DNA of 64,000 nt from an uncultured Chitinophagales bacterium (lineage in GTDB: Bacteria; Bacteroidota; Rhodothermia; Balneolales; HLUCCA01): the NCBI GenBank assembly GCA_964509715.1, contig CAZDYD010000003.1:1436-65435 (forward strand), in the 5' to 3' direction. The notes beneath the pieces are model-generated. The model was not told the origin of the DNA. It did not search any database and saw only the letters and a program-made list of their open reading frames with translations. The position numbers and the translations under genes were made by a program. Positions 13,130-62,475 of the stretch are shown piece after piece (positions within the stretch are counted from its first letter, which is position 1; each line of letters opens with the position of its first letter).

Positions 13130-13235
13130 CATATCACCAGCAATATATGAGCAGAAAAAAAGACTCATTATTATAGCAAATTCCATAACTTGGCCAGTGA
13201 AAAATCAAATTCATTTACCGGAATAAAACGAATTA

Positions 13236-13751
13236 ATGGATAGAACTTGGCGAGCTTTCTATACTAAACCACGGCATGAAATCAAGATAACGAATAGGCT
13301 TGATGAGGCAGGGTTCTCTGTGTATTGTCCGGTAGTAAAAATGAAAGTCCGCTGGAGCGATAGATGGAAAAAAGTCACCAGGCCCGCCTTGCCCGGATAC
13401 TTGTTTGTCCACGTCACTGAAGAGGAACGAATCATGGTTCTTCAGGACAAATCGGTGCTCAACTCAGTGATGTGGAACAAAAAACTCGCTGAAATTTCCA
13501 ATGAGGAAATTGAATTGATGAAGTTGGTGCTTGATGATGCTGAGCATGTTGAGACTACTGACATCACCGAAGGCGATCGTGTCGAGATCTCGAGGGGGTC
13601 ATTTACTGGTCAGAGCGGTATCGTGGTTCAGGTTTCGAACAAGACGGTGAGATTACGCATAGACTCGATGCAATGTGACATGACCATCAACGTTCCACTT
13701 GTTCGAATCGACAAGATCAGAGAACAGATGGGTATCACAGAACGAAGCTAA
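13236..13751 (+). CDS. UpxY-family (NusG/RfaH paralog) locus-specific transcription antiterminator
   Basis: NGN domain start WRAFYTKPRHEIKITNRLDEAGFSVYCPV and KOW motif GDRVEISRGSFTGQSGIVVQV. It sits at the head of a polysaccharide locus, as UpxY does in Bacteroides. Confidence 0.85.
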   Translation: MDRTWRAFYTKPRHEIKITNRLDEAGFSVYCPVVKMKVRWSDRWKKVTRPALPGYLFVHVTEEERIMVLQDKSVLNSVMWNKKLAEISNEEIELMKLVLDDAEHVETTDITEGDRVEISRGSFTGQSGIVVQVSNKTVRLRIDSMQCDMTINVPLVRIDKIREQMGITERS

Positions 13752-13855
13752 GAAGCTGTTTGAGTGTTTTGAAAAAATGAGTAATTTATCTACTCGTTTT
13801 TGTGTAGCATTGTGACTCACAACGGCGAAGCCATGCCAATAGTTGGCATCATATT

Positions 13856-14383
13856 ATGCTGGATATACTAATCAGTAACAAAACCCGGGTCAAATTGTTG
13901 CTGCGGTTTTTCTTAAATCCGCAACAAAAAGCCTATCTTCGTGGCCTTGAAAAGGAATTTCAGGACAGCACAAATTCAATTAGGCTGGAACTGAACAGAT
14001 TTGAGGAGGCTGGGTTGATCAGTTCCTTCAAAGAAGGAAACAAAAAGATGTATCGGGTCAATTCCAAGTACCCGCTTTTCAATGATCTACACTCCCTTGC
14101 TATGAAACACTTTGGTGTGGATCAGATCCTGGACCATATTGTCTCAAATCTTGGAGTACTCAAAGCTGTATACCTCACGGGAGATCTTGCGGCGGGGCGT
14201 GATTCTGATTTATTGGACATTGCCATCGTTGGTGACAATATAGACCGTGAATATTTGGCAACATTAGTTGAAAAAACGGAACAGTTGATCAATCGAAAAA
14301 TCCGAACCGTGGTGTTCAATTCAGACGAGACCAGTAAGATTCCGGAAACCCGCTTATTGATTTTCGAAGGACGGGTTGAATAA
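13856..14383 (+). CDS. Winged-helix (ArsR-like) DNA-binding protein with C-terminal nucleotidyltransferase-like domain
   Basis: The N-terminus (KTRVKLLLRFFLNPQQKAYLRGLEKEF...IRLELNRFEEAGLI) looks like a wHTH. The C-terminal half has a minimal NTase-like G-x-x-A-x-G...D-x-D pattern (LTGDLAAGRDSDLLDIAIVGD). Confidence 0.55.
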   Translation: MLDILISNKTRVKLLLRFFLNPQQKAYLRGLEKEFQDSTNSIRLELNRFEEAGLISSFKEGNKKMYRVNSKYPLFNDLHSLAMKHFGVDQILDHIVSNLGVLKAVYLTGDLAAGRDSDLLDIAIVGDNIDREYLATLVEKTEQLINRKIRTVVFNSDETSKIPETRLLIFEGRVE

Positions 14384-21339: not shown

Positions 21340-22305
21340 TTGAAAAATTTTGCTCTGATTGGTGCAGCCGGATTCATTGCTCCCCGGCATATGAAAGCGA
21401 TTAAGGATACGGGTAACAGAATCGTGGCGGCATTAGATCCCTTCGATAGTGTAGGGGTAGTAGACAGTTATTTTCCTGAGGCAGATTTTTTTACCGAGTT
21501 TGAACGATTTGATCGGCATATCGATAAGTTGAGACGAAGTGGCGAACAGATCGATTATGTGTCTGTCTGCTCACCGAACTATTTACATGATGCACACATT
21601 CGTTTTGGACTGCGTTCTCAAGCAGATGTGATCTGTGAAAAACCGCTCGTGTTAAATCCGTGGAATGTGGATGCGCTCAAACAAATTGAGACTGAAAGTG
21701 GAAAGAATATTTTTACCATTCTTCAGTTGAGGTTGCACCCTTCGATCATTGAACTCAAGAAACGAGTTGATGAAGACAAAAGCGGAAAGATGTATGATAT
21801 AGATCTAACGTATATCACATCACGTGGCCACTGGTACTATACCAGTTGGAAAGGCGACGTGAATAAGTCCGGTGGCATTGCTACAAACATTGGCGTCCAT
21901 TTTTTCGATGCTTTGATGTGGATATTTGGAGGACTTAAAAAGAACGTGGTTCATATTCTTGAACATGACAGGGCTTCCGGATTTATGCAACTTGAAAAAG
22001 CCAATGTGCGATGGTTTTTAAGTATAAATGCCGACACCTTGCCTGAAGAAGCCAAATCTACCGGAAAACGAACCTACAGATTGATCAGCATCAACGGTGA
22101 CAGTTTTGAATTCAGTGAAGGATTTACAGATCTTCACACCGATAGTTACCGGCACATTCTGGATGGACATGGATTTGGAATTGAAGAAGCAGGTGCATCT
22201 ATAAGTGTTGTACATGAAATTCGAACGGCACCGATACTTGGACTGACTGGTGATTATCACCCCTATGCCAAATTACCGTTGGCTCGACATCCCTTTGATT
22301 ATTGA
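21340..22305 (+). CDS. Gfo/Idh/MocA oxidoreductase (WbpB-like UDP-GlcNAcA 3-dehydrogenase type)
   Basis: N-terminal FALIGAAGFIAPRHMKAI Rossmann fold, EKP motif (VICEKPLVL) and 321 aa. Adjacent to the WbpE/WbpD-like genes. TTG start preceded by AAGGAGAG. Confidence 0.8.
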   Translation: MKNFALIGAAGFIAPRHMKAIKDTGNRIVAALDPFDSVGVVDSYFPEADFFTEFERFDRHIDKLRRSGEQIDYVSVCSPNYLHDAHIRFGLRSQADVICEKPLVLNPWNVDALKQIETESGKNIFTILQLRLHPSIIELKKRVDEDKSGKMYDIDLTYITSRGHWYYTSWKGDVNKSGGIATNIGVHFFDALMWIFGGLKKNVVHILEHDRASGFMQLEKANVRWFLSINADTLPEEAKSTGKRTYRLISINGDSFEFSEGFTDLHTDSYRHILDGHGFGIEEAGASISVVHEIRTAPILGLTGDYHPYAKLPLARHPFDY

Positions 22306-22310
22306 AATAT

Positions 22311-23162
22311 ATGCGTGACTTAAAAGTTACTGTTTACTCTCCCAAGTCATCTTTGACAAACCCGGTCAAGATGGCGCGTGCATTACTTGTTGATTTATTC
22401 GGTAGTCGTGAACTGGCATGGCGCCTTGCGGTACGTGACATTAGTGCCCAATATCGTCAGGCGGCATTAGGTATACTATGGGCATTTATACTTCCTCTGG
22501 TCAACACATTTACCTGGGTATTTCTTAGCGAATCCGGTATCGTATCGCTATCTGAGACCGATATTCCTTATCCGGTGTATGTGTTCGTTGGGACTATGCT
22601 TTGGCAAATACTTGTTGATGCCATAAACGCCCCACTCAATGAGACTACGGCTGCAAAAGCAATGCTGGCAAAACTGAACTTCCCCAGGGAAGCCATCATT
22701 ATGTCGGGTATCTACAAAACCTTGTTCAACGCACTTATAAAGGTTTTGTTGGTGATCATTGCCATCTCATTCTTTGGGATTTATCCGGGTTGGACCCTCC
22801 TTTGGTTACCCGTTGCATTGTTTTCACTGATTTTGGTGGGTACGTCGATTGGCTTACTGATAACACCTGTTGGTATTCTATATACAGATATTGGTAAAGC
22901 CATCCCATTGTTCATGCAGTTTTTAATGTATGTCACTCCCGTTGTGTTTGCCATGCCACAAAGTGGGCTAGCTGCAACCATTTTCAAATTGAACCCCTTT
23001 TCATATCTCATTTTGACATCAAGGAGCTGGATAACCAGTACACCGGTCGAGTTTCTGGATGGATTTATCATAGTAAACATATTGTTTTTCATACTCATGC
23101 TCATTGTTATGGTAATTTACAGATTGGCTATGCCCATTCTGATTGAGCGTATGAGTGCATGA
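22311..23162 (+). CDS. wzm: ABC-2 type polysaccharide/O-antigen exporter permease (Wzm/KpsM-like)
   Basis: About 6 TM segments and the ABC-2 N-terminus (ELAWRLAVRDISAQYRQAALGILWAFILPL). Directly upstream of the Wzt-like ATPase. Confidence 0.85.
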   Translation: MRDLKVTVYSPKSSLTNPVKMARALLVDLFGSRELAWRLAVRDISAQYRQAALGILWAFILPLVNTFTWVFLSESGIVSLSETDIPYPVYVFVGTMLWQILVDAINAPLNETTAAKAMLAKLNFPREAIIMSGIYKTLFNALIKVLLVIIAISFFGIYPGWTLLWLPVALFSLILVGTSIGLLITPVGILYTDIGKAIPLFMQFLMYVTPVVFAMPQSGLAATIFKLNPFSYLILTSRSWITSTPVEFLDGFIIVNILFFILMLIVMVIYRLAMPILIERMSA

Positions 23163-23186
23163 TTTTTATAAATAACAACTAACTGC

Positions 23187-24428
23187 ATGTCAAACGAAGT
23201 ACTGATCCGTGTAAACAATGTCTCCAAAAAATTCAGTAAGGATCTGAAGCGATCTTTATGGTATGGGATGAAAGACATTGGAAAAGAAGTGCTGGGGATG
23301 TCGGAACACAAACGAGATCGTCTGCGCCCCACTGAATTCTGGGCGGTAAAAGATGTGTCATTCGAACTGAAGAGAGGTGAGTGTCTCGGTTTGATTGGTC
23401 GAAATGGAGCAGGTAAGACCACTCTACTCAAAATGCTCAATGGTCTGGTCAAACCAGATCAGGGGAATATTGAAATGCGTGGACAAGTAGGCGCCTTGAT
23501 ATCATTGGGTACTGGATTTGACCCGATTCTCACCGGACGTGAGAATATCTATGTGAATGCCTCCATCTTGGGAATTAAAAAAGCAGAAATCGATGAAAAG
23601 GTAAATGAAATCATAGAATTTGCAGAATTGGGGGATTTCATCGAAGCACCGGTAAGAAGCTATAGTTCAGGGATGGTCAGCAGGCTTGGTTTTTCGATTG
23701 CTGTTCATATGAAGCCCGACATACTCATTTTGGATGAAGTTCTTGCCGTTGGTGATGCCGGATTCAAGATGAAATCTCTGAATAAAATGTACGAGATCAT
23801 GAATGAAACAGCCGTGATTTTTGTGAACCACAATATGGCCACTTTGTCACGTGTGTGTAACAAGATTTTGTACCTGAAAGATGGTCAAACACAATATTTC
23901 GGTGATAATGTATTGCACGGTATCGAAAGATATCTGGCACAATTTGAAGATGAGCAAGGATTCATAGATTACAATGGAAAAGCTCAATTTAATGAAATTG
24001 TTGTAGCGTCGAATGTGGACCGTGGCTTTGATATTAAAGAACGACCGATCTTGAATCATGGTGATGACCTGCTCATTGACTTTGATTATCAATTAGACCC
24101 TGCTTGTGGTCCTCATGAGTTGAGTGTAGTAATCTCAAATAAAGATTTTCTTACCCTCGCTTTCCACAAAACAGATCCAATCGAGAACACACCAGATGGT
24201 CACAACATGGTTAAACTCAGGATCCCCAAGCTTGAACTTACGAATGGTGAGTACAGCATTACATTCAAGATTCTGAGCTCAACTACCGATGGTACCTTGC
24301 CCGAAAATTATGCAACGTACAGACACTGGAAGAAATTCAAAGTTGAGGGACTTGGAACGTTGAATAGTGTTCCGTTTATGATCAGTGGTGAAATGCAGAT
24401 CATGTCGACCAACGGTACAAAACCATAA
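23187..24428 (+). CDS. wzt: Polysaccharide ABC exporter ATP-binding protein (Wzt-like) with ~170-aa C-terminal extension
   Basis: Walker A GRNGAGKTTLLK, signature YSSGMVSRLGFS and Walker B ILILDEVLAVGD. Residues ~245-413 form an extra, beta-strand-rich domain, as in Wzt proteins that bind the capped glycan terminus. Confidence 0.9.
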   Translation: MSNEVLIRVNNVSKKFSKDLKRSLWYGMKDIGKEVLGMSEHKRDRLRPTEFWAVKDVSFELKRGECLGLIGRNGAGKTTLLKMLNGLVKPDQGNIEMRGQVGALISLGTGFDPILTGRENIYVNASILGIKKAEIDEKVNEIIEFAELGDFIEAPVRSYSSGMVSRLGFSIAVHMKPDILILDEVLAVGDAGFKMKSLNKMYEIMNETAVIFVNHNMATLSRVCNKILYLKDGQTQYFGDNVLHGIERYLAQFEDEQGFIDYNGKAQFNEIVVASNVDRGFDIKERPILNHGDDLLIDFDYQLDPACGPHELSVVISNKDFLTLAFHKTDPIENTPDGHNMVKLRIPKLELTNGEYSITFKILSSTTDGTLPENYATYRHWKKFKVEGLGTLNSVPFMISGEMQIMSTNGTKP

Positions 24429-24452: not shown

Positions 24453-25466
24453 ATGAACTTGAACGGCAAATCAATACTTATAACGGGTGGAACAGGATCC
24501 CTTGGACGTGCTTTTATAAAAAAAGTACTTACAACCTGGCCGGATGTCGAAAGACTGGTCATCTTTTCCAGAGATGAACAAAAACAATTTGAAATGGCAC
24601 AGGAGTATCCGCACACACGATATCCAATGATCCGTTTTTTTATCGGAGATGTGCGTGATTATGCCAGATTGGTACGAGCTTTGAGTGGTATTGATTATGT
24701 GATCCATGCTGCTGCCATGAAACATGTGCCGATAGCCGAGTACAATCCTGATGAGTGTGTCAAAACGAATATCAATGGAGCCGAGAACCTGATCCGTGCT
24801 TGTCTTGAGACGAATGTGGAGAAAGTAGTTGCACTCTCAACCGACAAAGCTGCAGCACCAATCAATTTGTATGGCGCTACAAAATTAGTATCCGACAAAC
24901 TCTTCATTGCAGCTAATAACATTAAAGGTGATCGAAAAATTACGTTTTCAGTTGTTCGGTATGGAAATGTGATGGGATCGAATGGATCAGTGATACCATT
25001 CTTTCTAAAAAAACGCAAGGAAGGTGTCCTGCCTATCACTCATCCAGAAATGACACGTTTCAACATTACACTTGAAGGTGGAGTTAACATGGTGCTTCAT
25101 GCTCTTGAAACGGCTTGGGGTGGCGAACTATTTGTACCCAAACTTCCTTCATACAGAATATTGGACGTTGCCGAAGCTATTGGCCCTGAATGCGATAAAC
25201 CGGTCATAGGTATTCGTCCAGGAGAAAAAATTCATGAGGAGATGATCACAACATCAGATTCATTCTATACATATGATTTGGGTAGCTATTATGCCATCCT
25301 GCCATCGGTTCATAAATGGAAGATTGAAGATTTTGTAGATCATTTTAAAGCGGTAAAAGTGCCACGCGGATTTCAGTACAATTCTGGTGAAAATACAGAT
25401 TGGGTTAGCGTTGATGAGTTAAGAAAATTAGTAAAAGAACATGTTGACCCCTATTTTACAGTGTAG
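24453..25466 (+). CDS. pseB: UDP-N-acetylglucosamine 4,6-dehydratase (inverting), PseB/FlaA1
   Basis: Nearly collinear with my memory of H. pylori FlaA1: KSILITGGTGSLG, FFIGDVRD, IHAAAMKHVPIAEYNP, STDKAAAPINLYGATK, FSVVRYGNVMGS, IGIRPGEKIHE. Confidence 0.93.
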   Translation: MNLNGKSILITGGTGSLGRAFIKKVLTTWPDVERLVIFSRDEQKQFEMAQEYPHTRYPMIRFFIGDVRDYARLVRALSGIDYVIHAAAMKHVPIAEYNPDECVKTNINGAENLIRACLETNVEKVVALSTDKAAAPINLYGATKLVSDKLFIAANNIKGDRKITFSVVRYGNVMGSNGSVIPFFLKKRKEGVLPITHPEMTRFNITLEGGVNMVLHALETAWGGELFVPKLPSYRILDVAEAIGPECDKPVIGIRPGEKIHEEMITTSDSFYTYDLGSYYAILPSVHKWKIEDFVDHFKAVKVPRGFQYNSGENTDWVSVDELRKLVKEHVDPYFTV

Positions 25467-25513: not shown

Positions 25514-26530
25514 ATGCCCCCGTTAAAGTATTCGAGAGATAATGTATTATTCATTCAGGGTCCAGAAAAAACTGGTACATCGTCCCTGAATGGGATGCTT
25601 AATGCACACCCACAGATTATGAATCTGTTTGAAGTGTACATGGCTCAATCGTCAATAACTAAGTATGGTCACCAGTTATTGGACAAATATCCATCAGGAA
25701 GGATGTACTTTCGTGAGGATGATGATTACGGAGCGCCATATATAGATTTTTTCAACCACTTTTCGACTTTGGAACCAGATTTCAGTTACACATTCATTGG
25801 TACCAAGATCAATAGTATGGTAGCCGGACTCACAACCAGGAAGTATCCATATAAAACTATTTATACAATTCGTGATGTACGATCCTGGGCTATAAAGCAA
25901 AGCGTGATCAAACATTATCGTACCGAATTGGATATTGTGATTCCAATCATGGCGTATCTGCGGTTTGTTGTAGAAAGTTATAAATACCCCGACATCCTAA
26001 AAATTTGGATGGAAGATATGGTTTTGAACAATAATCATACGTTTGACCGAATCGGAGATTATCTCGAATTGGATTTCAGCAGCTACAAATCTGGATGGTG
26101 GGAAATGTTTGGCGCACATAGCGAGACGGATCCCAAAAGTACCTTTCGATTGTCACACATCCACCATTCTTCCCAGATCAAACCAGAGCGTTTAGATACA
26201 TCCTACAAACTTGCGGACCACCCGTTCTGGAATGAAGTGAGTGAAATATTTGATAAATATTATCTGAAAAATGACGAGGGTGCACTTTCAGATGCGATTA
26301 TGGCCCAAGATCTTCAGAGGATTGAACGGCTTCATACATATGCCCCGCTAACAATCGAAGATGCATATATTGGAATCAAAACCGAACGGTTTGGTGACCT
26401 CAAGTCCGAAAAAATCGAGTTCGATAAGTCCAACACGATACTTCCAGAAAATGAATCCCTGATGGCCAGAATCATTCGAAGATTACATCGGATCAATCAG
26501 GCGGCCAGAGGTAAAACCATACTTGATTGA
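25514..26530 (+). CDS. Putative PAPS-dependent sulfotransferase
   Basis: 5'-PSB-like loop PEKTGTSSL (nt 25562-25588) and a 3'-PB-like motif IRDVRSWAIKQS (nt 25871-25903) about 100 aa downstream, which is the canonical spacing. No other recognisable family motif. ATG at 25514 is preferred over TTG at 25496. Confidence 0.6.
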   Translation: MPPLKYSRDNVLFIQGPEKTGTSSLNGMLNAHPQIMNLFEVYMAQSSITKYGHQLLDKYPSGRMYFREDDDYGAPYIDFFNHFSTLEPDFSYTFIGTKINSMVAGLTTRKYPYKTIYTIRDVRSWAIKQSVIKHYRTELDIVIPIMAYLRFVVESYKYPDILKIWMEDMVLNNNHTFDRIGDYLELDFSSYKSGWWEMFGAHSETDPKSTFRLSHIHHSSQIKPERLDTSYKLADHPFWNEVSEIFDKYYLKNDEGALSDAIMAQDLQRIERLHTYAPLTIEDAYIGIKTERFGDLKSEKIEFDKSNTILPENESLMARIIRRLHRINQAARGKTILD

Positions 26531-26534
26531 TATC

Positions 26535-27818
26535 ATGGAAAATAAATCTGTAATTCCATATGGTAGGCAACACATCACCCAAAAAGATCTGGATGCCGTA
26601 GTTCGGGTACTACAATCAGATTATCTCACGCAAGGGCCTGAAATAGCTACATTTGAACAGGCATTTGCGAGTTATGTGGGATCTCGTTTCGCAGTTGCAG
26701 TTTCTAACGGCACGGCTGCACTTCACCTGTGTGCCTTGGCGCTTGACGTTAAAAGTGGAGATAAAGTACTCACAACACCTATCACGTTTGCGGCATCAGG
26801 TAACTGTATCAGATATTGCGGAGGTGAATTAGATTTCGTTGATATTGAACCGGATACGTATCTGATCGATATAGCTTCATTACGAAAAAAGCTCGAGTCT
26901 GTCCCAAAAGGGACATATCGCGGTGTCGTCCCGGTAGATTTTGCCGGACGTGCAGTTAACCTGGAGGAAGTCAGGAAGCTTGCCGATGAATTCGGACTTT
27001 GGATCATCGAAGATGCCTGCCATGCACCCGGTGGATTCTTCATCGACTCCAAAGAGAATAAACAGTTATGTGGAAATGGGGTTTTTGCTGATCTGGCCAT
27101 TTTCTCTTTCCATCCGGTTAAACATATTGCTGCAGGTGAAGGCGGTATGATTACTACCAATAATGAAGCATTATACGAGCGATTGTTAAGACTCCGAACG
27201 CATGGTATTACCAAAAATGTGAATGATTTTACGTTGGATGTCAATTTTGCGGCCGGACATGATGCCGAGCACATGGAGCTTCAAAAATCGGCACCATCTA
27301 TTGGTGCTCCTCATGCGCATGAAACTGAGCTTGCCAATAAAAATTCAATCAACGCATATCCGGGTTGGTACATGGAGATGCAGGAACTGGGTTATAATTA
27401 TCGTCTGACCGACTTTCAGGCTGCATTGGGGCATTCTCAACTTGAGGAGGCTGATGACAGACTGTCGCGCCGCCGACAAATAGCCGAACGATATGCCCAA
27501 GCATTTTATGGCAAACCATTCATTTTAGGTCAATCAGATCACATTGAAGGGCATGCTTATCATCTTTACATTATTGAAACGCCCCGTCGACTCGAACTGT
27601 ACAATTACCTGAGGACCAAAGGGATCTATGCGCAGGTACACTACATTCCATTACACTTAATGCCATACTATCGGCAATTTGGGTGGAAATCAGGTGATAT
27701 GCCATCATCAGAATCATATTACCGTAAATGCCTGAGCCTTCCTATGTATCCGACGTTGAGTGATGATCAGCAGCATTTTGTAATCAAAACCATTGAGGAG
27801 TTCTTTGAACAAGATTAG
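26535..27818 (+). CDS. pseC: UDP-4-amino-4,6-dideoxy-N-acetyl-beta-L-altrosamine transaminase, PseC (with ~40-aa insertion)
   Basis: The PseC-type N-terminus IPYGRQHITQKDLDAVVRVLQSDYLTQGP plus the DegT-family core (SFHPVKHIAAGEGG). Extra segment DVNFAAGHDAEHMELQKSAPSIGAPHAHETELANKNS. Confidence 0.9.
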   Translation: MENKSVIPYGRQHITQKDLDAVVRVLQSDYLTQGPEIATFEQAFASYVGSRFAVAVSNGTAALHLCALALDVKSGDKVLTTPITFAASGNCIRYCGGELDFVDIEPDTYLIDIASLRKKLESVPKGTYRGVVPVDFAGRAVNLEEVRKLADEFGLWIIEDACHAPGGFFIDSKENKQLCGNGVFADLAIFSFHPVKHIAAGEGGMITTNNEALYERLLRLRTHGITKNVNDFTLDVNFAAGHDAEHMELQKSAPSIGAPHAHETELANKNSINAYPGWYMEMQELGYNYRLTDFQAALGHSQLEEADDRLSRRRQIAERYAQAFYGKPFILGQSDHIEGHAYHLYIIETPRRLELYNYLRTKGIYAQVHYIPLHLMPYYRQFGWKSGDMPSSESYYRKCLSLPMYPTLSDDQQHFVIKTIEEFFEQD

Positions 27819-28635
27819 TCGAATCGGACTTGGAACCGTGCAATTTGGTCTCCCGTACGGAATTTCTAATAAACTCGGACAACCAGATAAGAAATCTGTT
27901 GCTGAGGTGCTGGAACTGGCAAAGACATCCGGCATCAAAATGATTGATACCGCCAGTGCCTATGGTACCGCTGAGTTGGTGTTGGGATCAATTGGAGTGC
28001 AGGATTTTCATGTGGTGTCAAAATATATGCCACCTGAAAGCTACATGTCGATAGACGAACAAGTACATCAGTCTCTTGAACGTCTTCAATGTGATCATTT
28101 ATACGGATACCTTGCACATCGACCTCAGAACATAGTCAAGCGACCGGAGCAATGGGAAGCTTTACAACTCCTGAAACAAGAAGGGTTTGTTGGGAAGATC
28201 GGGTTCAGTCTGAATGAACCTGCCGAGCTGGATGCGTTACTCGAACTCGGTATGATTCCGGACTTAATTCAGGTCCCGGTAAACTACTTTGACCGAAGAT
28301 TTGTGAGTTATTTCGATGAATTGAAGTCCATAGGCACTGAAATCCATGGTAGATCTGCATTTCTTCAGGGATTATTTTTTCTGAAAGAATTTGAATCCCG
28401 TTTTGATCCGGTTCGTGATGTGATTCGGAACCTCCAGTCCTCTATAAGCAATCTTCCCGCTGCTTTATTGAATTATGTACTTTCAGATACCCGAATCGAT
28501 ACGGTGCTGATAGGTGTGCAGAACGTTACCCAGCTTCGGGACATCATTGTCGGATTAGATGAATCTGAGTCTTTACCCGAACTTAATATGGATATCAGCG
28601 ATGAGATTGTGATGCCCTCAAAATGGAGTCATTAA
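27793..28635 (+). CDS. Aldo/keto reductase family oxidoreductase
   Basis: RIGLGTVQFGLPYGISN start and (beta/alpha)8 AKR layout (IDTASAYGTAE...). The TTG start (27793 or 27805) overlaps the pseC stop. Confidence 0.8.
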   Translation: MRSSLNKISRIGLGTVQFGLPYGISNKLGQPDKKSVAEVLELAKTSGIKMIDTASAYGTAELVLGSIGVQDFHVVSKYMPPESYMSIDEQVHQSLERLQCDHLYGYLAHRPQNIVKRPEQWEALQLLKQEGFVGKIGFSLNEPAELDALLELGMIPDLIQVPVNYFDRRFVSYFDELKSIGTEIHGRSAFLQGLFFLKEFESRFDPVRDVIRNLQSSISNLPAALLNYVLSDTRIDTVLIGVQNVTQLRDIIVGLDESESLPELNMDISDEIVMPSKWSH

Positions 28636-37037: not shown

Positions 37038-38492
37038 ATGAACATTTATATCCCAATTGAAGTCAAGATTCGAGAGTTGGAAGGACGTACACTCTTGGCA
37101 CTTGCTGCGGCTGAGCGTGGACATCAGGTCATTTTGGGGAGTAAGATGGACGCACTGATACCAGCAGTGGATGGTCATTTACCGGCAGGGGTGATCCATA
37201 TGAAATCCCTCACTCCTTCGGATCAAATGCTTGATCAACTCACCAAACTAAAATCCAACGGTCATTTGGTTACATCCCAGGATGAAGAAAGTGGACTTCT
37301 GGATGAGTCGTATGAAAAATTTGCTCGAATCAGGTATAGCGAATTATCCATAAATAAAGCAGATGCTGTGTTTGGCTGGGGCGAATTTGATACGGCTTCA
37401 CTGAAACAGGTATATCCTGATTTTGCTGAAAAGATGATTGCAACTGGATCACCGCGTGTAGATTTTTGGCGAAAGGATTTTCAAAATTATTTTCATCTCG
37501 ATAGTAAGCTACAGAAGTGGCAGGACAAACCATATCTGATGGTGGTATCAAATTTTGGGTCGGTCATTCGATCCAATAAAATCTGGAATGTGATGGCACG
37601 ACTCAGAGAAGCGGGATATTTTGACAGGGACCCGGAAATGGAGCTATTCGAGTATGAATATTCCGGTTACATGCTCCAGTTGATCGGACATTTCGTGAAA
37701 ATGATCAGGCAGTTGGCTGAAACGTATCCGGATGTAAATATATTGATTCGTCCACATCCGGTTGAAGCTGATGAAGCATGGGATAAAATGATTGGTCCTT
37801 ACCCAAATGTGCATGTATTCCGTGAAGGTACCATCAGTGCATGGATTCGTGGAGCTACAGCCATCATCCATAATGGGTGTACTAGCGCACTGGAAGCCGC
37901 CGTTTCAGGTGTGCCTCGCATTGCCTATCGTCCACTCCCTTCACATTTTGAACGTGAAATCCCAAATCAGCTCAGTAGGGAAGCATTCACCATGGATGAG
38001 TTGCTCGAGAAAGTTGATCACCTGCTTCAGAACCAATCAAGTAAGGCCGAATTAAATCAGGATAAACTGGCTGAGGAAAAACTGGCCAAACGACTTGTAA
38101 ATGTTGATGGAGTTTTGGCCGCTGACCGTATTGTAGATGCCTGGGAAATACTGGCTCGGAACAACAAACTGGATACGGCTAAACAAGTTGGGGATGTGGT
38201 GGTTCATCACGGTGTTGGATCCGGCACACCCTTAACAACCAACAACTCGTTGGTCGTTAAGTTCAAACGCAAGGTGAAAGCACTCCTGCAAGGGGACGAA
38301 AACGGAACGAATGGTACTCCAATTCGGGATGATGGGCAGTTGCTCGACAATTCATTCAAGTTCAAGTCATACACGGATGATGAGTTCCGTGAAATTCTTG
38401 AGAACCTTCAGTCATCTATTGATCGTTTTCATCACATTGAATATCGAAGAATCAGTGATCGTGCTTTCCTGATTACATCCAAAAAAAATTAA
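37038..38492 (+). CDS. Uncharacterised GT-B-like 'surface carbohydrate biosynthesis' protein with HP motif (candidate CMP-nonulosonate transferase)
   Basis: The N-terminus IYIPIEVKIRELEGRTLLALAAAERGHQVILG resembles proteins I recall as annotated 'surface carbohydrate biosynthesis protein' next to Pse/Leg genes. RPHP motif at nt 37749-37760, followed by IIHNGCTSALEAAVSGVP (a GT-B C-terminal Rossmann half). The function is inferred. Confidence 0.45.
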   Translation: MNIYIPIEVKIRELEGRTLLALAAAERGHQVILGSKMDALIPAVDGHLPAGVIHMKSLTPSDQMLDQLTKLKSNGHLVTSQDEESGLLDESYEKFARIRYSELSINKADAVFGWGEFDTASLKQVYPDFAEKMIATGSPRVDFWRKDFQNYFHLDSKLQKWQDKPYLMVVSNFGSVIRSNKIWNVMARLREAGYFDRDPEMELFEYEYSGYMLQLIGHFVKMIRQLAETYPDVNILIRPHPVEADEAWDKMIGPYPNVHVFREGTISAWIRGATAIIHNGCTSALEAAVSGVPRIAYRPLPSHFEREIPNQLSREAFTMDELLEKVDHLLQNQSSKAELNQDKLAEEKLAKRLVNVDGVLAADRIVDAWEILARNNKLDTAKQVGDVVVHHGVGSGTPLTTNNSLVVKFKRKVKALLQGDENGTNGTPIRDDGQLLDNSFKFKSYTDDEFREILENLQSSIDRFHHIEYRRISDRAFLITSKKN

Positions 38493-39775
38493 TGAGTCAG
38501 ACAATCAATAAAATCGGGTTCTATGTCGTAGACAAACGACATTATGATTATTTCGGTAATGTATGGACAGAATTACAAAAGCGTGGTATACCTTTTGAGC
38601 TGATCATCAACGACCAGTTATCTGAGGTCAAACAAAGTGTGAAGGATGAGTACGACCTCGAGATGGTTTCGATAGCGAAACACAAGGGTCATTCATGGAT
38701 CACACTGACCGATGTGCTAAAGAAGGGATGTAAATACAAAGTGTTTGTGACTACGTTCACATTCAAGTTCGGGGTGAGATCGCCTGAGACTACGCTGATC
38801 GAAAACGTGGTGAGAAGAGGCTATCGGGCAATCCAAAAAATACTTCGATTATTTCGATCTAACCTCTTCAGTGAATCGCTTGAATCATGGTATCGACAGT
38901 ATGAACTCGATAAACTTCAACTTCCAGAAGTTCTGGCCGGGCAAATAGTGGTGCAGTTCCCAAAAGGAATGGACATCCATCTGGCAAAGTTTCCTGATCC
39001 ACAGACCAAAGACATCATCGATTTGTATCTGTGTCATGGTGATTTTGACAGTAATCTGGTTCAGACCAGGACTAAAAAGCCGTGCGCTGTTATCGGGTAT
39101 CCGCGTTATGACAATCTGGTCGACCCTGAACTTAAATTGGCAAAAAATATTAGAACCGAGTTTGGAATCCCATCTGATAAGCCTATTGTGGCGTGGTTGC
39201 CGACGTATGTCCCACGACAGGGCAATGATGATTTTAACATCGACAGCTGGGCTCCATTTGTTGCTGAGCTCACTAAGAATTTTGCTGTGATCGTAAGGCC
39301 ACATCCGAAACGGGTTGAACGTGACAGAGAAATATTGAATGATAAGTTATCATCCTTTGGATTCTATGTCGATCTTGTTGCAGAAAGAGATATGAGTGAG
39401 TTATATGCTGGTGCTGCATTTACACTTTGTGATTACGGAGGGGTAGTGTTCAGTTCTGTTTATACGGATCAAAATCTGATTTTACTTAATCACCCAGAAC
39501 ATGACAGCGAACATCAACGCAAAGAGAACCTAATTGTTTATCAAATCCGTGATCAGTTGCTCAATGTAGGTTTTGAACAGGCGAATCAAGAGCCTGATAT
39601 TTTAATCAAGCTGACTCAGAACAAAGAAATTTGGGATCAACAGTCGCGAATTCGTGACAAAGTACGTGAACAATTCTTTGGTGGTGTAGAAGCAGGAAGA
39701 GGTTCTGAACTTGCCGCTGAGATTTTGGACAATGTATTAAGTGAGGGTCGGTCTTCGAACATATTCAAACAATAA
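38492..39775 (+). CDS. Uncharacterised GT-B-like protein with HP motif (TagF/CDP-glycerol glycerophosphotransferase-like or CMP-sugar transferase-like)
   Basis: RPHP at nt 39296-39307 followed by LCDYGGVVFSSVY, which resembles the TagF-family KPHP...DYSS pattern. The start overlaps the upstream stop (ATGA). Confidence 0.45.
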   Translation: MSQTINKIGFYVVDKRHYDYFGNVWTELQKRGIPFELIINDQLSEVKQSVKDEYDLEMVSIAKHKGHSWITLTDVLKKGCKYKVFVTTFTFKFGVRSPETTLIENVVRRGYRAIQKILRLFRSNLFSESLESWYRQYELDKLQLPEVLAGQIVVQFPKGMDIHLAKFPDPQTKDIIDLYLCHGDFDSNLVQTRTKKPCAVIGYPRYDNLVDPELKLAKNIRTEFGIPSDKPIVAWLPTYVPRQGNDDFNIDSWAPFVAELTKNFAVIVRPHPKRVERDREILNDKLSSFGFYVDLVAERDMSELYAGAAFTLCDYGGVVFSSVYTDQNLILLNHPEHDSEHQRKENLIVYQIRDQLLNVGFEQANQEPDILIKLTQNKEIWDQQSRIRDKVREQFFGGVEAGRGSELAAEILDNVLSEGRSSNIFKQ

Positions 39776-39776
39776 A

Positions 39777-43663: not shown

Positions 43664-43768
43664 AAACAAATCTGAGTTGAATCCGTTGAATGGGATAACA
43701 TTCAACCCATGTAAAAACTACATTGAAGAGAATAGAGTTTTGAAAAGCGTTTCACATTCATAGTGCCG

Positions 43769-48567: not shown

Positions 48568-48618
48568 ATATGATGGTGCCTATAAATCATCATCATTCGA
48601 TTCGAAACAACTGAATAC

Positions 48619-53392: not shown

Positions 53393-54196
53393 ATGAACCA
53401 TACAGTTCAAATAAGTTCCATAATCGATATCGCTAAGAAAGCTGGTGAAATCATCCTCAAGTACTATCACACAGATACTGATGTACAGAGTAAGGTAGAT
53501 GCCTCCCCCTTGACGATTGCCGATCTTGAATCAAATAATTTTATACGCGAAGAGTTGGCTCGACTCACCCCTGACATACCTGTCATTAGTGAGGAAACCG
53601 TACCCGAATCGTATGAAGTACGTCGAGAGTGGGATACTTTTTGGTTAGTGGATCCACTCGATGGAACGAAGGAATTCGTTAAGAAAACGGGTCAGTTTAC
53701 TGTAAACATCGGACTGATATCCGGAGGAATTCCAGTACTTGGGGTCATTGAAGTACCGGTTATGAATCAAGTATACTATGCTGATGAAAACGGGGCTTGG
53801 CATGTGGACAGACAGTATGGCTCCGAACCACGTAAACTTCAGGTCCGGCCTTTAGATGAACAACAAATCGACATCGTGGCAAGCCGAGATCACGCAGGAC
53901 CAATGGTACAGGCGTTGTCGCAGGACCTCCCTGGCGCCGGATTCAAGTCCATGGGGAGTTCTCTCAAGTTCTGTCTGGTTGCAGCAGGCGAGGCGGATGT
54001 CTACCTTAGGGATGTCCCAACCATGGAATGGGACACCGCGGCCGCTCATGCTATCTTAAAGGCTGCCGGTGGTGAAATCTATACGCTTAATGGTATCGTG
54101 CTGAATTACAATAAAGAATCGTTGAGAAATCCTTCCATTTTGAGCATTGGTCCAGCGCGTGAATTCTGGTTCGATAAAATATCATCGATTTCCTGA
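53393..54196 (+). CDS. cysQ: 3'(2'),5'-bisphosphate nucleotidase CysQ (PAP phosphatase)
   Basis: Inositol monophosphatase-fold motifs EE...WLVDPLDGTKEF and GSSLKFCLVAAGEADVY; 267 aa, typical of CysQ. Confidence 0.88.
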   Translation: MNHTVQISSIIDIAKKAGEIILKYYHTDTDVQSKVDASPLTIADLESNNFIREELARLTPDIPVISEETVPESYEVRREWDTFWLVDPLDGTKEFVKKTGQFTVNIGLISGGIPVLGVIEVPVMNQVYYADENGAWHVDRQYGSEPRKLQVRPLDEQQIDIVASRDHAGPMVQALSQDLPGAGFKSMGSSLKFCLVAAGEADVYLRDVPTMEWDTAAAHAILKAAGGEIYTLNGIVLNYNKESLRNPSILSIGPAREFWFDKISSIS

Positions 54197-57607: not shown

Positions 57608-59425
57608 ATGAGTGCTGATGCAATTTTAACCATAGTAACAATTCTGGCGGTGTTATTGGCATTGTTCAGAGAGGTGACACGTCCGGATGTGATTTTCATT
57701 GTCGGACTATTGTTCCTGATGGTGACCGGCGTGTTGACACCCAATCAGGCTTTCAGTGGATTTGCGAATCCTGCAGTATTCACCGTCGGGGCATTGTTCA
57801 TAGTGGCAGCAGGAATTCAGCGTACCCGTGCACTCGGATTTCTGGATCATGTGGTCTTCAATGATCAGTTTTCAGCGCGAAAGGTTTTGGCAAGAATGAT
57901 GGCATCGACTGCAACTATGAGTTCGTTTCTGAATAACACTCCCATTGTGGCCATGCTCATCCCTCAGGTTCAACAATGGTCAGATAGAACAGGAATTCCA
58001 GCATCAAAACTATTGATTCCACTATCGTATGCAGCTATCGTTGGCGGTGTTGTGACATTGATTGGAACATCGACCAACATCATCGTATCTGGAATGCTCG
58101 AACAGAGGGGGATAGCTCCACTGGCACTGTTCGAGTTAACATGGATCGGGCTGCCTGCTGCAGTATTATTGGTTATCTGGTTCGTTACGTTTGGATACAG
58201 AATGCTACCGGAGCGAAAAGTAAAAGCAGAGGTGAAGAATCCGGGGTTTGAGAATGAACCAGCAATACAATCGGGTGATTCGAACTCCCATTCGAATGGG
58301 AACGGTTATCAGATGGATCTGAAAGTTGGACCAGAGTCAGTATTGATCGGACAAACTGTGGAAGATGCCGGACTACGTGGGTTAGAGCATGCCTTCTTGA
58401 TCCACGTACATCGCCATGGACGCACCATTGGTCCGATTGGTCCCCACTTTATCCTTGAGGAAGGGGATATTTTGACTTTTATCGGTGATGTAAAGGCCAT
58501 CGATGAGATGAGTGTCAGAAAAGGTTTGGCTCGGGGTACACCTGTGCTTGACGCCAGTGAACCTGATCTCCCACTTTTTGAAGCCGTCGTCGCGCCGACA
58601 TCCATTTTGGTCGGTAAAACATTGAAACAGATAGAATTTCGGGAACGGTTTCATGCAGTGGTGATCGGAATACAGCGCCAGACAGAAGAGATTCGTGGTG
58701 CATTGGGAAATCTACCCATTGAAGCGGGTGATCTGTTGCTTATCGAATCCAAAGAAGGTTTTGATGAGCGTGCCAATAATGATAAGGACAACTTCTACTT
58801 GGTTACACGCAAGGGCTCACGGCAACTACCGGTGAACAAAAAAGCTCGATTGGCCCTGATGTTAACAGGCCTAATGATTCTGATTGCAACATTTGAAATC
58901 ATTCCGATCGTGACGGCCGCCATGATCACGGCCGCAGTAATGATCTATACAGGATGTGTGAAAAAAGATCAGATCATGGCATCGTTGAATCTACCCATAT
59001 TGTTGGTTATAGCTGCAGCGATTGGTTTGGGTCAGGCTATTGAAACGACGGGACTTGCCGTAAACGCCGCCGGGCTCATTAACGAATATACCGCGGTGTT
59101 TGGTCCAATCGCGATCATCGCTGGAGTGTATATTCTTACAAATATACTTACAGAGCTCATTACCAATAATGCAGCGGCTGTGCTTATGTTGCCGATTGCA
59201 CTTGCATTAGGAATCGAAACGGGAATCACTCCTCATGCTATGGCTGTGACCGTTGCTATTGCTGCATCGGCCAGTTTTCTGACTCCAATCGGGTATCAGA
59301 CGAACCTCATGGTTATGGGGGCGGGACGCTACAGGTTCAAAGATTACCTGAAGGCTGGTTTCCCGGTGACCCTTTTCATGTTAATTCTCACTATCTTTAC
59401 CGTAGATTTTATCTGGAACCGTTAA
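57608..59425 (+). CDS. SLC13/DASS-family anion permease with two internal TrkA-C (RCK_C) domains; probable sulfate uptake
   Basis: Two hydrophobic halves flank a ~200-aa soluble region with a duplicated TrkA-C-like motif (LIGQTVEDAGLRGLEHAFLIHVHRHGR and LVGKTLKQIEFRERFHAVVIGIQRQTE). Immediately upstream of cysD. Confidence 0.85.
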   Translation: MSADAILTIVTILAVLLALFREVTRPDVIFIVGLLFLMVTGVLTPNQAFSGFANPAVFTVGALFIVAAGIQRTRALGFLDHVVFNDQFSARKVLARMMASTATMSSFLNNTPIVAMLIPQVQQWSDRTGIPASKLLIPLSYAAIVGGVVTLIGTSTNIIVSGMLEQRGIAPLALFELTWIGLPAAVLLVIWFVTFGYRMLPERKVKAEVKNPGFENEPAIQSGDSNSHSNGNGYQMDLKVGPESVLIGQTVEDAGLRGLEHAFLIHVHRHGRTIGPIGPHFILEEGDILTFIGDVKAIDEMSVRKGLARGTPVLDASEPDLPLFEAVVAPTSILVGKTLKQIEFRERFHAVVIGIQRQTEEIRGALGNLPIEAGDLLLIESKEGFDERANNDKDNFYLVTRKGSRQLPVNKKARLALMLTGLMILIATFEIIPIVTAAMITAAVMIYTGCVKKDQIMASLNLPILLVIAAAIGLGQAIETTGLAVNAAGLINEYTAVFGPIAIIAGVYILTNILTELITNNAAAVLMLPIALALGIETGITPHAMAVTVAIAASASFLTPIGYQTNLMVMGAGRYRFKDYLKAGFPVTLFMLILTIFTVDFIWNR

Positions 59426-59510: not shown

Positions 59511-60407
59511 ATGCAAACATCTCATTTAAAAATTCTTGAAAATGAAGCGATTCACGTAATGCGTGAAGTAGCCGCTCAATTCGAACGACCAGCATTGCTG
59601 TTTTCCGGAGGGAAAGACTCAATTATCATGGTCCATCTGGCCAGGAAGGCATTTTATCCGGCAAGGATTCCCTTTCCATTAATCCATATCGATACCGGAC
59701 ATAATTTTTCGGAGACCATTGAATTCCGTGATTGGTTGGTCAAAGAAACTGGTGCCCGACTCATAGTAGGACATGTTCAAGACAGTATAGATGCCGGACG
59801 TGTTGTCGAAGAAACGGGTCCTGAAGCCAGTCGAAACGGACTTCAAACGGTCACCCTACTCGATACGCTGAAAAAGCATCAAATCGATGCCGCACTCGGT
59901 GGAGGTCGACGAGATGAAGAAAAAGCACGTGCCAAAGAGCGTTTTTTCTCCCACCGGGACATTTTCGGACAATGGGATCCCAAGAACCAACGACCTGAGT
60001 TGTGGAACTTGTACAATGGTCGCAAAAACCAGGGAGAACAATTCCGTGTATTTCCCATATCGAACTGGACCGAAATGGATGTGTGGCAATACATCGCTTT
60101 GGAGAACATCGCCATCCCAAGTATCTATTTCGCACATAAGCGAAACGTGTTCAATCGTCGTGGCACCTGGCTGGACGACAACGAATTTATACAGCGATAT
60201 CCTGATGAAGTGGTTGAGAATCGCATCGTGAGGTTCCGAACCATTGGTGATGCGACATGTACAGGAGCTGTCTTATCGGAGGCATCGAACCTGGATGAGA
60301 TCATTCAGGAAGTCGCAGCTGCCCGTCAGACAGAACGTGGAAACAGACATGATGACAAGCGTTCTGAGACGGCCATGGAAGATCGCAAAAGAGCCGGGTA
60401 CTTCTAG
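59511..60407 (+). CDS. cysD: Sulfate adenylyltransferase subunit 2
   Basis: LKILENEAIHVMREV, PP-loop LLFSGGKDS, HIDTGHNF, RVFPISNWTEMDVWQYI and the C-terminal RKRAGYF*. Confidence 0.96.
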   Translation: MQTSHLKILENEAIHVMREVAAQFERPALLFSGGKDSIIMVHLARKAFYPARIPFPLIHIDTGHNFSETIEFRDWLVKETGARLIVGHVQDSIDAGRVVEETGPEASRNGLQTVTLLDTLKKHQIDAALGGGRRDEEKARAKERFFSHRDIFGQWDPKNQRPELWNLYNGRKNQGEQFRVFPISNWTEMDVWQYIALENIAIPSIYFAHKRNVFNRRGTWLDDNEFIQRYPDEVVENRIVRFRTIGDATCTGAVLSEASNLDEIIQEVAAARQTERGNRHDDKRSETAMEDRKRAGYF

Positions 60408-60591: not shown

Positions 60592-62475
60592 ATGTCATAC
60601 CTAGAAATGGATTTACTTCGGTTCAGTACAGCTGGATCGGTTGATGATGGAAAGAGCACACTGATCGGTCGTCTTTTGTACGATTCAAAGTCGATATTTG
60701 AAGACCAGATGGAGGCCATAGAGAAGACATCCAAGAACACTGGTGAAGAAGGAGTGAATCTGGCGTTGCTCACCGATGGACTTCGGGCCGAGCGTGAGCA
60801 GAAGATCACCATTGATGTAGCCTACCGTTATTTTGCTACACCGAAACGTAAATTTATTATAGCCGACACCCCGGGACATATCCAGTACACACGTAACATG
60901 GTTACCGGGGCTTCTACAGCTGACTTGGCCATCATCTTGGTAGATGCTCGAAAAGGAGTCCTGACTCAATCGAAAAGACACTCTTTTATCGCATCACTTT
61001 TACAGATTCCGCACATGGTCGTGGCCGTGAACAAAATGGATCTGGTTGAGTATAGTGAAGATCGATTCAATGAAATCGTAGATGATTTCAAGAAGTTCGC
61101 TCAAAAACTCGAGATCGACGACATTACTTTTATACCTATTTCGGCCCTCAAGGGGGATAACATTGTAAACAAGGGGGATAACATGCCTTGGTACAATGGT
61201 TCTACTCTGTTGCACACCTTGGAGAATGTCAACGTGGGATCACGTCGAAACATGATCGATTTCAGATTTCCGGTACAGTACGTTGTTCGACCGAATCAGG
61301 ATTTTCGCGGATTTGCAGGGACAGTAGCATCGGGTACAATCAGGGTGGGTGAGGATATTACAGTACTTCCATCACGATTTAAAAGCAAAGTGAAGGAAGT
61401 TTGGCAATATGACAAAAGTATTCAGGAAGCCTACAGCGGTGAGTCCGTCGTCATAACCATTGAAGACGAAATCGACATCAGCCGAGGTGATATGCTGGTC
61501 CGTAGTGGGAACCTACCCTCTGTAAACCAGGAGTTTGAGGCATTTGTCTGCTGGATGAACGAACAGGCCATGGAACCCGGCAAGAGTTATTATATTCAAC
61601 ATACCACTCGAATGGCTATGGCCATTCCGGATAAAGTACGATACAAAATCGATGTGGATACACTTCACCGGGAGCAGACCGACACTCTGCAACTCAATGA
61701 AATAGGTCGCGTTCGTATAAAAGTCTCTCAACCCATTTTCAGCGATCCATATAAAATAAATAATGCCACTGGTAGTTTTATACTGATCGATTCTGCATCG
61801 AATGTCACGGTTGGTGCCGGAATGATCAGGGCAATTTACACCGATGAGAATGGGGCAGAAGTAAATGTGGATGAATCATTTGCTACTGCGCCCCATCGTA
61901 ATATCGTTTGGGAACCGTGGAATATTCCACGTGAAATCCGTGAAAAGCGGAATGGACATCCTGCTAAAGTACTCTGGTTCACTGGAGTGTCTGGCGCAGG
62001 GAAGTCTACAATTGCTCGTGCACTTGAGCAAAAACTCTACGAATCCGGGAAGCAGACCATGCTTTTGGATGGGGATCAGGTACGCCACGGACTCAATGCT
62101 GATCTCGGATTTGATCCGAAGGACCGAACTGAAAACATTCGTAGGGTTGGTGAAGTGGCCCGACTTTTCTACGAACATGGTAATATCGTGCTCTGTACCT
62201 TCGTATCTCCCTATAAATCTGATCGGGATGCGGTGCGATCCTTGTTCCCGGATGGGGATTTTATCGAGATTCATGTAACGGCAGATCATCAAACTCTGAT
62301 TGAACGTGATCCCAAGGGACTATACAAGAAAGCACAATCGGGCGAGATTACCAACCTGACTGGTTTCAATGCGGGGCATGAAGCTCCGGTCCACTCAGAT
62401 GCGATTCAGATTGACACAACCATGATGAGTGTCGATGATGCCATCGAAGTGGTTCTAAAGCGATTGGCTCAGTAA
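60592..62475 (+). CDS. cysNC: Bifunctional sulfate adenylyltransferase subunit 1 / adenylylsulfate kinase
   Basis: GTPase motifs GSVDDGKSTLIGRL, DTPGH and NKMD. The C-terminal APS kinase has the P-loop FTGVSGAGKSTIA and LDGDQVRHGLN. Confidence 0.96.
   Translation: MSYLEMDLLRFSTAGSVDDGKSTLIGRLLYDSKSIFEDQMEAIEKTSKNTGEEGVNLALLTDGLRAEREQKITIDVAYRYFATPKRKFIIADTPGHIQYTRNMVTGASTADLAIILVDARKGVLTQSKRHSFIASLLQIPHMVVAVNKMDLVEYSEDRFNEIVDDFKKFAQKLEIDDITFIPISALKGDNIVNKGDNMPWYNGSTLLHTLENVNVGSRRNMIDFRFPVQYVVRPNQDFRGFAGTVASGTIRVGEDITVLPSRFKSKVKEVWQYDKSIQEAYSGESVVITIEDEIDISRGDMLVRSGNLPSVNQEFEAFVCWMNEQAMEPGKSYYIQHTTRMAMAIPDKVRYKIDVDTLHREQTDTLQLNEIGRVRIKVSQPIFSDPYKINNATGSFILIDSASNVTVGAGMIRAIYTDENGAEVNVDESFATAPHRNIVWEPWNIPREIREKRNGHPAKVLWFTGVSGAGKSTIARALEQKLYESGKQTMLLDGDQVRHGLNADLGFDPKDRTENIRRVGEVARLFYEHGNIVLCTFVSPYKSDRDAVRSLFPDGDFIEIHVTADHQTLIERDPKGLYKKAQSGEITNLTGFNAGHEAPVHSDAIQIDTTMMSVDDAIEVVLKRLAQ

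Follow-up and report, generated by a model that had tools for sequence, protein, structure and literature searches.

A probable PAPS-dependent sulfotransferase encoded between pseB and pseC in a polysaccharide locus of an uncultured Balneolales bacterium

Sulfation of bacterial exopolysaccharides is chemically common, yet recognisable sulfotransferase genes are scarce (PMC10483923), and the Pfam seeds miss bacterial polysaccharide sulfotransferases (PMC11625862). The closest described loci are the sulfated capsule and O-antigen clusters of Vibrio sp. KMM 8419 and Cobetia marina KMM 1449, which are reported to carry their own genes for 3'-phosphoadenosine-5'-phosphosulfate (PAPS) synthesis together with a sulfotransferase (PMC11641403, PMC11766843). 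Here we analyze a comparable locus in a 64,000-nucleotide stretch of DNA (hereafter the window; positions 1,436 to 65,435 of contig CAZDYD010000003.1, assembly GCA_964509715.1) from an uncultured Chitinophagales bacterium that GTDB places in the Balneolales. Our subject is gene X, an open reading frame (ORF) on the + strand at 25514-26530 that encodes 338 aa and lies between pseB and pseC, two genes of pseudaminic acid (Pse) biosynthesis. X differs from the sulfotransferases of the marine clusters in two ways: its gene lies within the nonulosonate (pse) genes, as part of that sub-operon, and databases list its branch as "hypothetical protein". Polysaccharide loci with PAPS genes and a sulfotransferase were therefore known already; the novelty lies in an unannotated clade of sulfotransferases with a fixed place in a pse operon, an arrangement of which we found no description in the literature searched. 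Based on sequence conservation and a predicted structure, we consider it very probable that X is an active PAPS sulfotransferase. The best overall explanation, which we regard as probable, is that X is a soluble cytoplasmic PAPS-dependent enzyme whose acceptor is most likely a Pse-type nonulosonate; its activity, donor, acceptor and membrane association are what we infer from the evidence below. Given how poorly bacterial polysaccharide sulfotransferases are catalogued, the family of X supplies one concrete missing piece that can be annotated immediately.

Two protein groups serve as points of comparison. The first is Sulfotransfer_3 (PF13469), the NodH-type bacterial carbohydrate sulfotransferases and their relatives, with which X shares an N-terminal 5'-phosphosulfate-binding (5'-PSB) strand-loop-helix, an RD-type 3'-phosphate-binding (3'-PB) element and, ahead of the C-terminal third, an "EDL...FL" helix. 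It differs from this group in scoring below the Pfam cutoff, in a 5'-PSB loop that reads G-P-E-K-T-G-T-S, and in family-specific C-terminal motifs (WW195-196, K208, HxSS217-220, D228 and W239) followed by a basic amphipathic tail. The second group comprises TPST1 and TPST2 (PDB 5wrj, 3ap1-3 and 8w5z), which give both the best structural and the best profile match to X and have the same arrangement of a basic residue in the 5'-PSB, a Glu after beta-2, a Lys after beta-3 and an Arg in the 3'-PB. However, X and the TPSTs are only 15-18% identical, the basic 5'-PSB residue of X is Lys rather than Arg, and the TPST 3'-PB Ser has no clear equivalent. Moreover, TPST is a Golgi type II membrane enzyme that acts on peptides, whereas X is a cytoplasmic bacterial protein from a polysaccharide operon.

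The reading frame of X opens at either 25496 (TTG, 344 aa) or 25514 (ATG, 338 aa). The ATG start fits the N-termini of homologs and agrees with gene calls made independently on metagenomic contigs of identical sequence. An earlier reading made from the sequence alone (the sequence-only reading) had called this ORF with a length of 338-344 aa; the ORF exists as called and the shorter length stands, while nothing favors the TTG extension. The junction sequence places the stop codon of X either 4 nt ahead of the pseC start or in an 8 nt overlap with it. No transmembrane segment is present in X, and a scan of the protein against NCBIfam gave no match. The statement of the sequence-only reading that X has no obvious family signature beyond two motifs needs correction, as residues 12-59 match Sulfotransfer_3 just under the cutoff (25.4 bits versus 27, E=2e-5).

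To place X among known proteins, we turned to its relatives. A word-indexed search of 5.8 billion proteins returned 21, all of them unnamed, and a profile run exhaustively against 1.84 billion cluster representatives matched 167 clusters, 88 of these below 1e-30. The family thus spans about 167 clusters at 50% identity, and every member whose name was checked is a "hypothetical protein". Two profiles were used, one of the close family (A1) and one from an alignment of 70 full-length relatives that are 22-58% identical to X (A2). Because 56 of the 70 touch PF13469 (the best at 1e-12; P0033 reaches 27.9 bits), the family is an outlying, unannotated branch of Sulfotransfer_3. In a sequence-only search of the PDB, profile A2 matches TPST1 over profile positions 4-193 (E=5.4e-7). 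The narrower A1 gave insignificant matches only, to the CurM sulfotransferase (E 0.26) and the TPST N-terminus, and significance came with the broader A2. X belongs to a divergent branch of a Sulfotransfer_3/TPST-like group and, by its own Pfam score, is an outlying rather than a clean member. Among the distant members, P0031 and P0037 (about 780-800 aa), P0035, P0094 and P0119 are fusion proteins, the partners being TPR plus Methyltransf_24, TPR alone, a class I S-adenosylmethionine-dependent methyltransferase or GSCFA.

Structure prediction bore out the proposed fold. The AlphaFold2 model of X, computed on the family alignment, has a pLDDT of 88 and a pTM of 0.84, and the best 50 Foldseek matches in the PDB are all sulfotransferases (probability 0.90-1.00). 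Leading these are TPST1 and TPST2 (E about 2e-6, probability 1.00, target-normalised TM-score 0.45-0.54); the others include the olefin-synthase (OLS)/CurM-type sulfotransferase, cytosolic SULTs, Stf9, NDST1, retinol dehydratase and LGS1. The C-terminal half of X, described as unrecognisable in the sequence-only reading, forms one sulfotransferase domain together with the N-terminal half, since the Foldseek alignments cover 300-320 of the 338 residues. In the model, X is predicted to be one alpha/beta domain with a central parallel beta-sheet and the sulfotransferase fold. It contains a strand (11-16), loop and helix (22-30) near the N-terminus and a strand (114-119) followed by helices 122-125 and 129-135; a strand-loop-helix and a strand-turn-helix are the hallmarks of sulfotransferases (reviewed in PMC11625862 and PMC9372746). 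X matches none of the six canonical Pse enzymes (PseB, PseC, PseH, PseG, PseI and PseF), and by Foldseek its fold is not that of a GNAT, SDR, PLP (pyridoxal phosphate) enzyme, GT-B glycosyltransferase, TIM barrel or cytidylyltransferase. X is an accessory gene.

To locate candidate functional residues, X and a TPST1 fragment were aligned to profile A2 and conservation was counted over the 70 sequences. The elements of X are as follows.

25514..26530, + strand: gene X, sulfotransferase-fold protein (ORF, PF13469, AlphaFold2, Foldseek, profile)
25559..25585, + strand: 5'-PSB strand-loop-helix, residues 16-24, GPEKTGTSS (conservation, TPST1 alignment, model)
25631..25633, + strand: E40, candidate catalytic base (E in 68/70, D in 2/70; after strand 35-39)
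25805..25807, + strand: K98, candidate second catalytic Lys (K in 68/70; aligns to the Lys of TPST1 CNKDP)
25871..25903, + strand: 3'-PB strand-turn-helix, residues 120-130, RDVRSWAIKQS (conservation, TPST1 alignment, model)
26162..26173, + strand: family-specific H217-x-S219-S220 motif (H217 in 61/70, S219 in 66/70)
26447..26506, + strand: cationic amphipathic helix, residues 312-331 (hydrophobic moment 0.72, the highest in the protein; net charge +3; predicted helix 316-331)

The sequence-only reading had proposed a sulfotransferase from two motifs about 100 residues apart, PEKTGTSSL (residues 17-25) and IRDVRSWAIKQS (residues 119-130). The spacing is as described, with 101 residues from K19 to R120, and both motifs are kept across the 70 relatives down to 22% identity, falling on the 5'-PSB and 3'-PB positions of TPST1, with the catalytic Glu and Lys positions matched as well. 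In the 5'-PSB, G16 is invariant (70/70) and K19, T22 and S23 are present in 58, 64 and 65 of the 70. K19, the putative catalytic Lys, is matched with the Arg in the GVPRSGTT stretch of TPST1, and E40, which aligns to the second Glu of CGEET, is the candidate catalytic base. The 3'-PB had been given as an R-D-x-R...S pattern, and of this the Arg holds firmly: R120 (70/70) aligns to the Arg of TPST1 VRDGRAS and is accompanied by D121 (62/70), T/S124 (59/70), W125 (69/70) and K/H128 (70/70). The Ser is ambiguous, as S130 is kept in 19/21 close relatives but in only 19/70 distant ones, and the position aligned to the TPST 3'-PB Ser is Q129. Overall, K19, E40, K98 and R120 are conserved in 83-100% of the 70 relatives. 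We take these four to be the equivalents of the catalytic Arg78, Glu99 and Lys158 and the 3'-PB Arg183 of TPST2, as reportedly assigned by Teramoto et al. in 2013.

The C-terminal third has conserved features of its own. W195 (68/70) and D228 (67/70) stand near the H217-x-S219-S220 motif, as do the WW195-196 pair, K208 and W239, and the motif possibly takes part in binding PAPS or the acceptor. From its sequence, the amphipathic helix at the C-terminus is a candidate membrane-surface anchor. Some relatives (clade B, described below) carry an extra hydrophobic tail at the same position, and together the two features hint that the enzyme works at the surface of the membrane, the site of assembly of an ABC-transporter-dependent polymer.

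Gene neighborhoods provide a further line of evidence. The close family splits into two clades. Clade A consists of X, P0002-P0005 and P0010, which are 45-81% identical to X, and lies between pseB and pseC in all five loci with readable flanks (the window, L033, L004, L034 and L009). Clade B, with 47-84% identity within the clade and about 42% to X, sits directly downstream of cysNC with a gap of 1-78 nt in L006, L008, L011, L019 and L020, often near genes for CysQ, CysD, a sulfate permease and canonical sulfotransferases. This sister clade is translationally coupled to cysNC in the five loci, which supports the use of PAPS by the family independently of the pse context. The gene is not adjacent to cysNC in L018 or in four loci from GTDB metagenome-assembled genomes (MAGs), L014-L017. 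The A1 profile search found five GTDB species, and the neighbors in L014-L017 are uninformative (a two-component system, DUF4159, MBOAT and SelB); an apparent CysN-like gene near these relatives was rejected because it is SelB. Predicted fold, motif conservation and the cysNC coupling of the sister clade agree on the sulfotransferase identity that had been proposed for X.

Clade B genes are also repeatedly followed by genes for very large secreted proteins with Metallophos/Pur_ac_phosph_N domains, Big_1/Invasin_D3 repeats and a Por_Secre_tail of the type IX secretion system (T9SS), located at 11344-14340 in L006, 11426-14413 in L008, 4912-10772 in L018 and 2083-4530 in L019. The order cysD, cysNC, X-family gene, giant adhesin-like protein recurs in several metagenomes. 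Such neighbors raise the idea of a protein or peptide tyrosine sulfotransferase of the TPST/RaxST type, with clade B perhaps modifying the downstream T9SS-secreted Big_1 proteins. The TPSTs are indeed the closest solved structures and the only significant sequence matches in the PDB, but the likeness is one of fold, and TPST is the nearest solved relative of most Sulfotransfer_3 enzymes. In addition, X is cytoplasmic while T9SS cargo is exported by Sec, and in the window X is part of a sugar-biosynthesis operon with no such secreted-protein neighbor. We regard a role in tyrosine sulfation as extremely improbable.

The window itself is one long single-strand polysaccharide locus of a Balneolales-like bacterium, whose MutS2 has its best match at 69% identity. 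At its head are genes for a UpxY-like NusG protein, Wza, a chain-length determinant and Wzm/Wzt. These are followed by the pse block, in the order pseB, X, pseC, aldo-keto reductase, SDR, cytidylyltransferase, PseG, carbamoyltransferase, PseI, PIG-L and carbamoyltransferase. A BFO_1060-like glycosyltransferase, several other glycosyltransferases, a Wzy_C protein and WbuX/HisH/HisF come next, and the locus ends with CysQ, a sulfate-type permease, CysD and CysN-CysC. Both the pseB and pseC flanks of X and the PAPS-synthesis genes at the end of the locus, as recognised in the sequence-only reading, are confirmed by family models, with PseB and PseC assigned at equivalog level:

24453..25466, + strand: pseB, UDP-GlcNAc 4,6-dehydratase (inverting) (TIGR03589, 507.5 bits, cutoff 408)
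26523..27818, + strand: pseC aminotransferase (TIGR03588, 445 bits, cutoff 423.5)
30266..31267, + strand: pseG-like UDP-sugar hydrolase (TIGR03590, 144.4 bits, slightly below the cutoff of 153.55)
33131..34189, + strand: pseI pseudaminic acid synthase (TIGR03586, 489.5 bits)
37038..38492, + strand: surface carbohydrate biosynthesis/BFO_1060-like glycosyltransferase (TIGR04396, 274.6 bits; NF046086, 83 bits)
53393..54196, + strand: cysQ PAP phosphatase, which clears the sulfotransferase by-product 3'-phosphoadenosine-5'-phosphate (PAP) (TIGR01331, 286.7 bits)
57608..59425, + strand: CitMHS/Na-sulfate symporter-type permease with TrkA_C domains (Pfam)
59511..60407, + strand: cysD, ATP sulfurylase small subunit (PF01507, 147.9 bits)
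60592..62475, + strand: cysN-cysC fusion of the sulfate adenylyltransferase GTPase subunit and APS (adenosine-5'-phosphosulfate) kinase, which makes PAPS (GTP_EFTU and APS_kinase domains)

We screened the window for other sulfotransferases using Pfam or NCBIfam for ORFs of at least 150 aa, and the A2 family hidden Markov model plus three canonical Sulfotransfer_3 proteins from L006/L008 for ORFs of at least 60 aa. No second sulfotransferase was found in the window by this screen. Because X is the sole sulfotransferase-like ORF in these 64 kb, it is the obvious consumer of the PAPS made by the locus. A 484-aa ORF at 37038 that has no Pfam match was considered as a hidden sulfotransferase and rejected, being the TIGR04396/BFO_1060-like protein listed above. 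The BFO_1060 family has been implicated in the transfer of derivatives of Pse and legionaminic acid (Leg) in T. forsythia (PMC5420450), and by family assignment this protein is a candidate nonulosonate transferase.

Based on these data, we propose the following route. Sulfate would be imported by the adjacent permease and converted to PAPS by the locus-encoded CysD and CysN-CysC. The 5'-phosphosulfate of PAPS would bind the G16-S24 loop through K19, and its 3'-phosphate R120 and the following helix. E40, acting as a base, would take the proton from an acceptor hydroxyl for in-line transfer of the sulfuryl group from PAPS, with K19 and K98 stabilising the transition state or the leaving PAP, which CysQ would then hydrolyse. 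The acceptor would be O4 or O8 of Pse, whether free, CMP-activated or polymer-bound, and the basic amphipathic C-terminal helix may hold X at the inner face of the membrane. X most likely sulfates the Pse-containing surface polysaccharide of the locus. That the acceptor is the Pse-type sugar itself is a tentative assignment, one we would put at somewhat less than an even chance, and the consequence that a sulfated pseudaminic acid derivative reaches the cell surface is no more secure than that. If the acceptor is Pse, the product would represent a new decoration of bacterial sialic-acid-like sugars, and X could serve as an enzyme for the chemo-enzymatic synthesis of sulfated nonulosonates.

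The chemistry of the pathway narrows the choice of acceptor, in particular the sugar-nucleotide option of the sequence-only reading. In nonulosonate synthesis, C1-C6 of the hexose become C4-C9 of Pse, and its O3 ends up as O6 in the ring. Since O3 is the sole free hydroxyl of the UDP-hexose intermediates, we rejected their O-sulfation as chemically implausible. The acceptors that we infer to remain are O4 or O8 of Pse, CMP-Pse or polymer Pse, the 4-amino group of the PseC product, and another sugar of the polymer. The amino group is the one position at the UDP-hexose stage whose sulfation allows later ring closure, as follows from established chemistry, and it leads to an explanation in which X is an N-sulfotransferase that acts on UDP-4-amino-4,6-dideoxy-L-AltNAc in place of PseH, giving a 7-N-sulfo pseudaminic acid. 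The location of X between pseB and pseC fits this idea, and no PseH-type GNAT was found in the pse block of the window or of L004, although PseH could be encoded elsewhere. We know of no N-sulfated bacterial sugar nucleotide. Heparan N-sulfotransferase is among the sulfotransferases with a Glu base (PMC11625862), and NDST1 is among our Foldseek matches. However, the two carbamoyltransferases and the PIG-L deacetylase of the pse block offer alternative routes of N-modification, and because L009 carries a GNAT and WbqC alongside X, we rate N-sulfation as quite improbable.

Several observations weigh against O-sulfation of Pse by X or against an active enzyme altogether. The Pfam match of X stays below the gathering score and is confined to 48 N-terminal residues, the matches to solved sulfotransferases have moderate TM-scores (0.42-0.54) and a high rmsd, and a canonical 3'-PB serine is not clearly identifiable. 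Asn replaces K19 in 9/70 relatives, perhaps because these are inactive paralogs or rely on another arrangement. This last point, and the presence of the OLS/CurM sulfotransferase, retinol dehydratase and LGS1 among the structural matches, would suit a protein that leaves no sulfate in the end product, either an "activating" sulfotransferase of the CurM, retinol dehydratase or LGS1 type or an inactive or repurposed P-loop protein. Such a role is very improbable given that the catalytic set is conserved in X and most relatives, that no partner for an elimination step is evident, and that a dedicated CysQ, permease and CysDNC imply stoichiometric use of sulfate. With respect to the acceptor, no sulfated Pse is reported in the literature we searched. 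The family is not tied to Pse, given that the 10-kb flanks read around clade B genes contain no pse genes. The pseB-X-pseC order may itself be a single inherited arrangement, since the whole cluster is syntenic, in which case it says little about the acceptor.

These considerations bear most directly on an alternative in which X is a PAPS sulfotransferase for another polysaccharide sugar or a lipid-linked intermediate and its place in the pse block is historical. In its favor, clade B genes adjoin cysNC without pse genes nearby, the locus encodes many other sugars and glycosyltransferases, and the amphipathic helix at the C-terminus suggests that X acts at the membrane once the glycan has been assembled. 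Marine sulfated capsules with PAPS genes in the cluster are reported to carry sulfate on ordinary hexoses (PMC11641403, PMC11766843). Against it, all five clade A genes are kept exactly between pseB and pseC though the loci differ otherwise; for instance, L004 has no DegT/Hexapep/GFO genes, and the pse tail of L009 is not the same, yet the position of X is unchanged. We regard this alternative as unlikely, though worth keeping in view, and favor a Pse-type nonulosonate as the acceptor.

Beyond X, the gene content of the pse block suggests that its product is a heavily modified Pse, possibly a carbamoylated one. Around pseI lie genes for two carbamoyltransferases of the NodU/CmcH type and for a deacetylase of the PIG-L family (27793-36856; also L004). 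In L009 a GNAT and WbqC stand where the second carbamoyltransferase would be. An aldo-keto reductase, SDR and CTP_transf_3 trio between pseC and pseG (27793-30269) is kept in L004 and L009. Its cytidylyltransferase-like protein has weak KdsB-type NCBIfam matches only and no match to a PseF equivalog, which leaves the CMP-activating step without a clean assignment. PseC (26523-27818) is 431 aa long versus 380 positions in the TIGR03588 model and has an insertion of ~40-50 residues around residues 230-280 that is rich in His, Ala and Glu.

The remainder of the locus points to a complex polymer. Wzm/Wzt ABC-transporter genes (22302-24428; the Wzt_C carbohydrate-binding-domain match is weak, 17.9 bits) lie directly upstream of pseB, and since Wza, a chain-length determinant and a Wzy_C protein (43763-45175) are encoded as well, ABC-transporter-type and Wzy-type parts are mixed. 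A terminal Pse, possibly sulfated, could act as an export signal. A Glyphos_transf (TagB/F-like) gene overlaps one for a protein with a weak APH/Kdo-kinase-like kinase domain (38492-40889), a pair that suggests that part of the glycan is phosphorylated or contains glycerophosphate. That this polysaccharide also includes an acetamidino sugar is indicated by HisH-like and HisF-like genes and the WbuX N-acetyl sugar amidotransferase (TIGR03573, 300 bits; 46099-49749), with a GT2 gene (47566-48567) lying among them. Lastly, at the head of the locus (12281-14383; also L004 1-1629) lie genes for a membrane protein of the TauE/SafE sulfite-exporter family and for a NusG/UpxY-like antiterminator, together with an ORF of 175 aa that matches no family, in a gene order shared with the Bacteroidetes MAG UBA11400.

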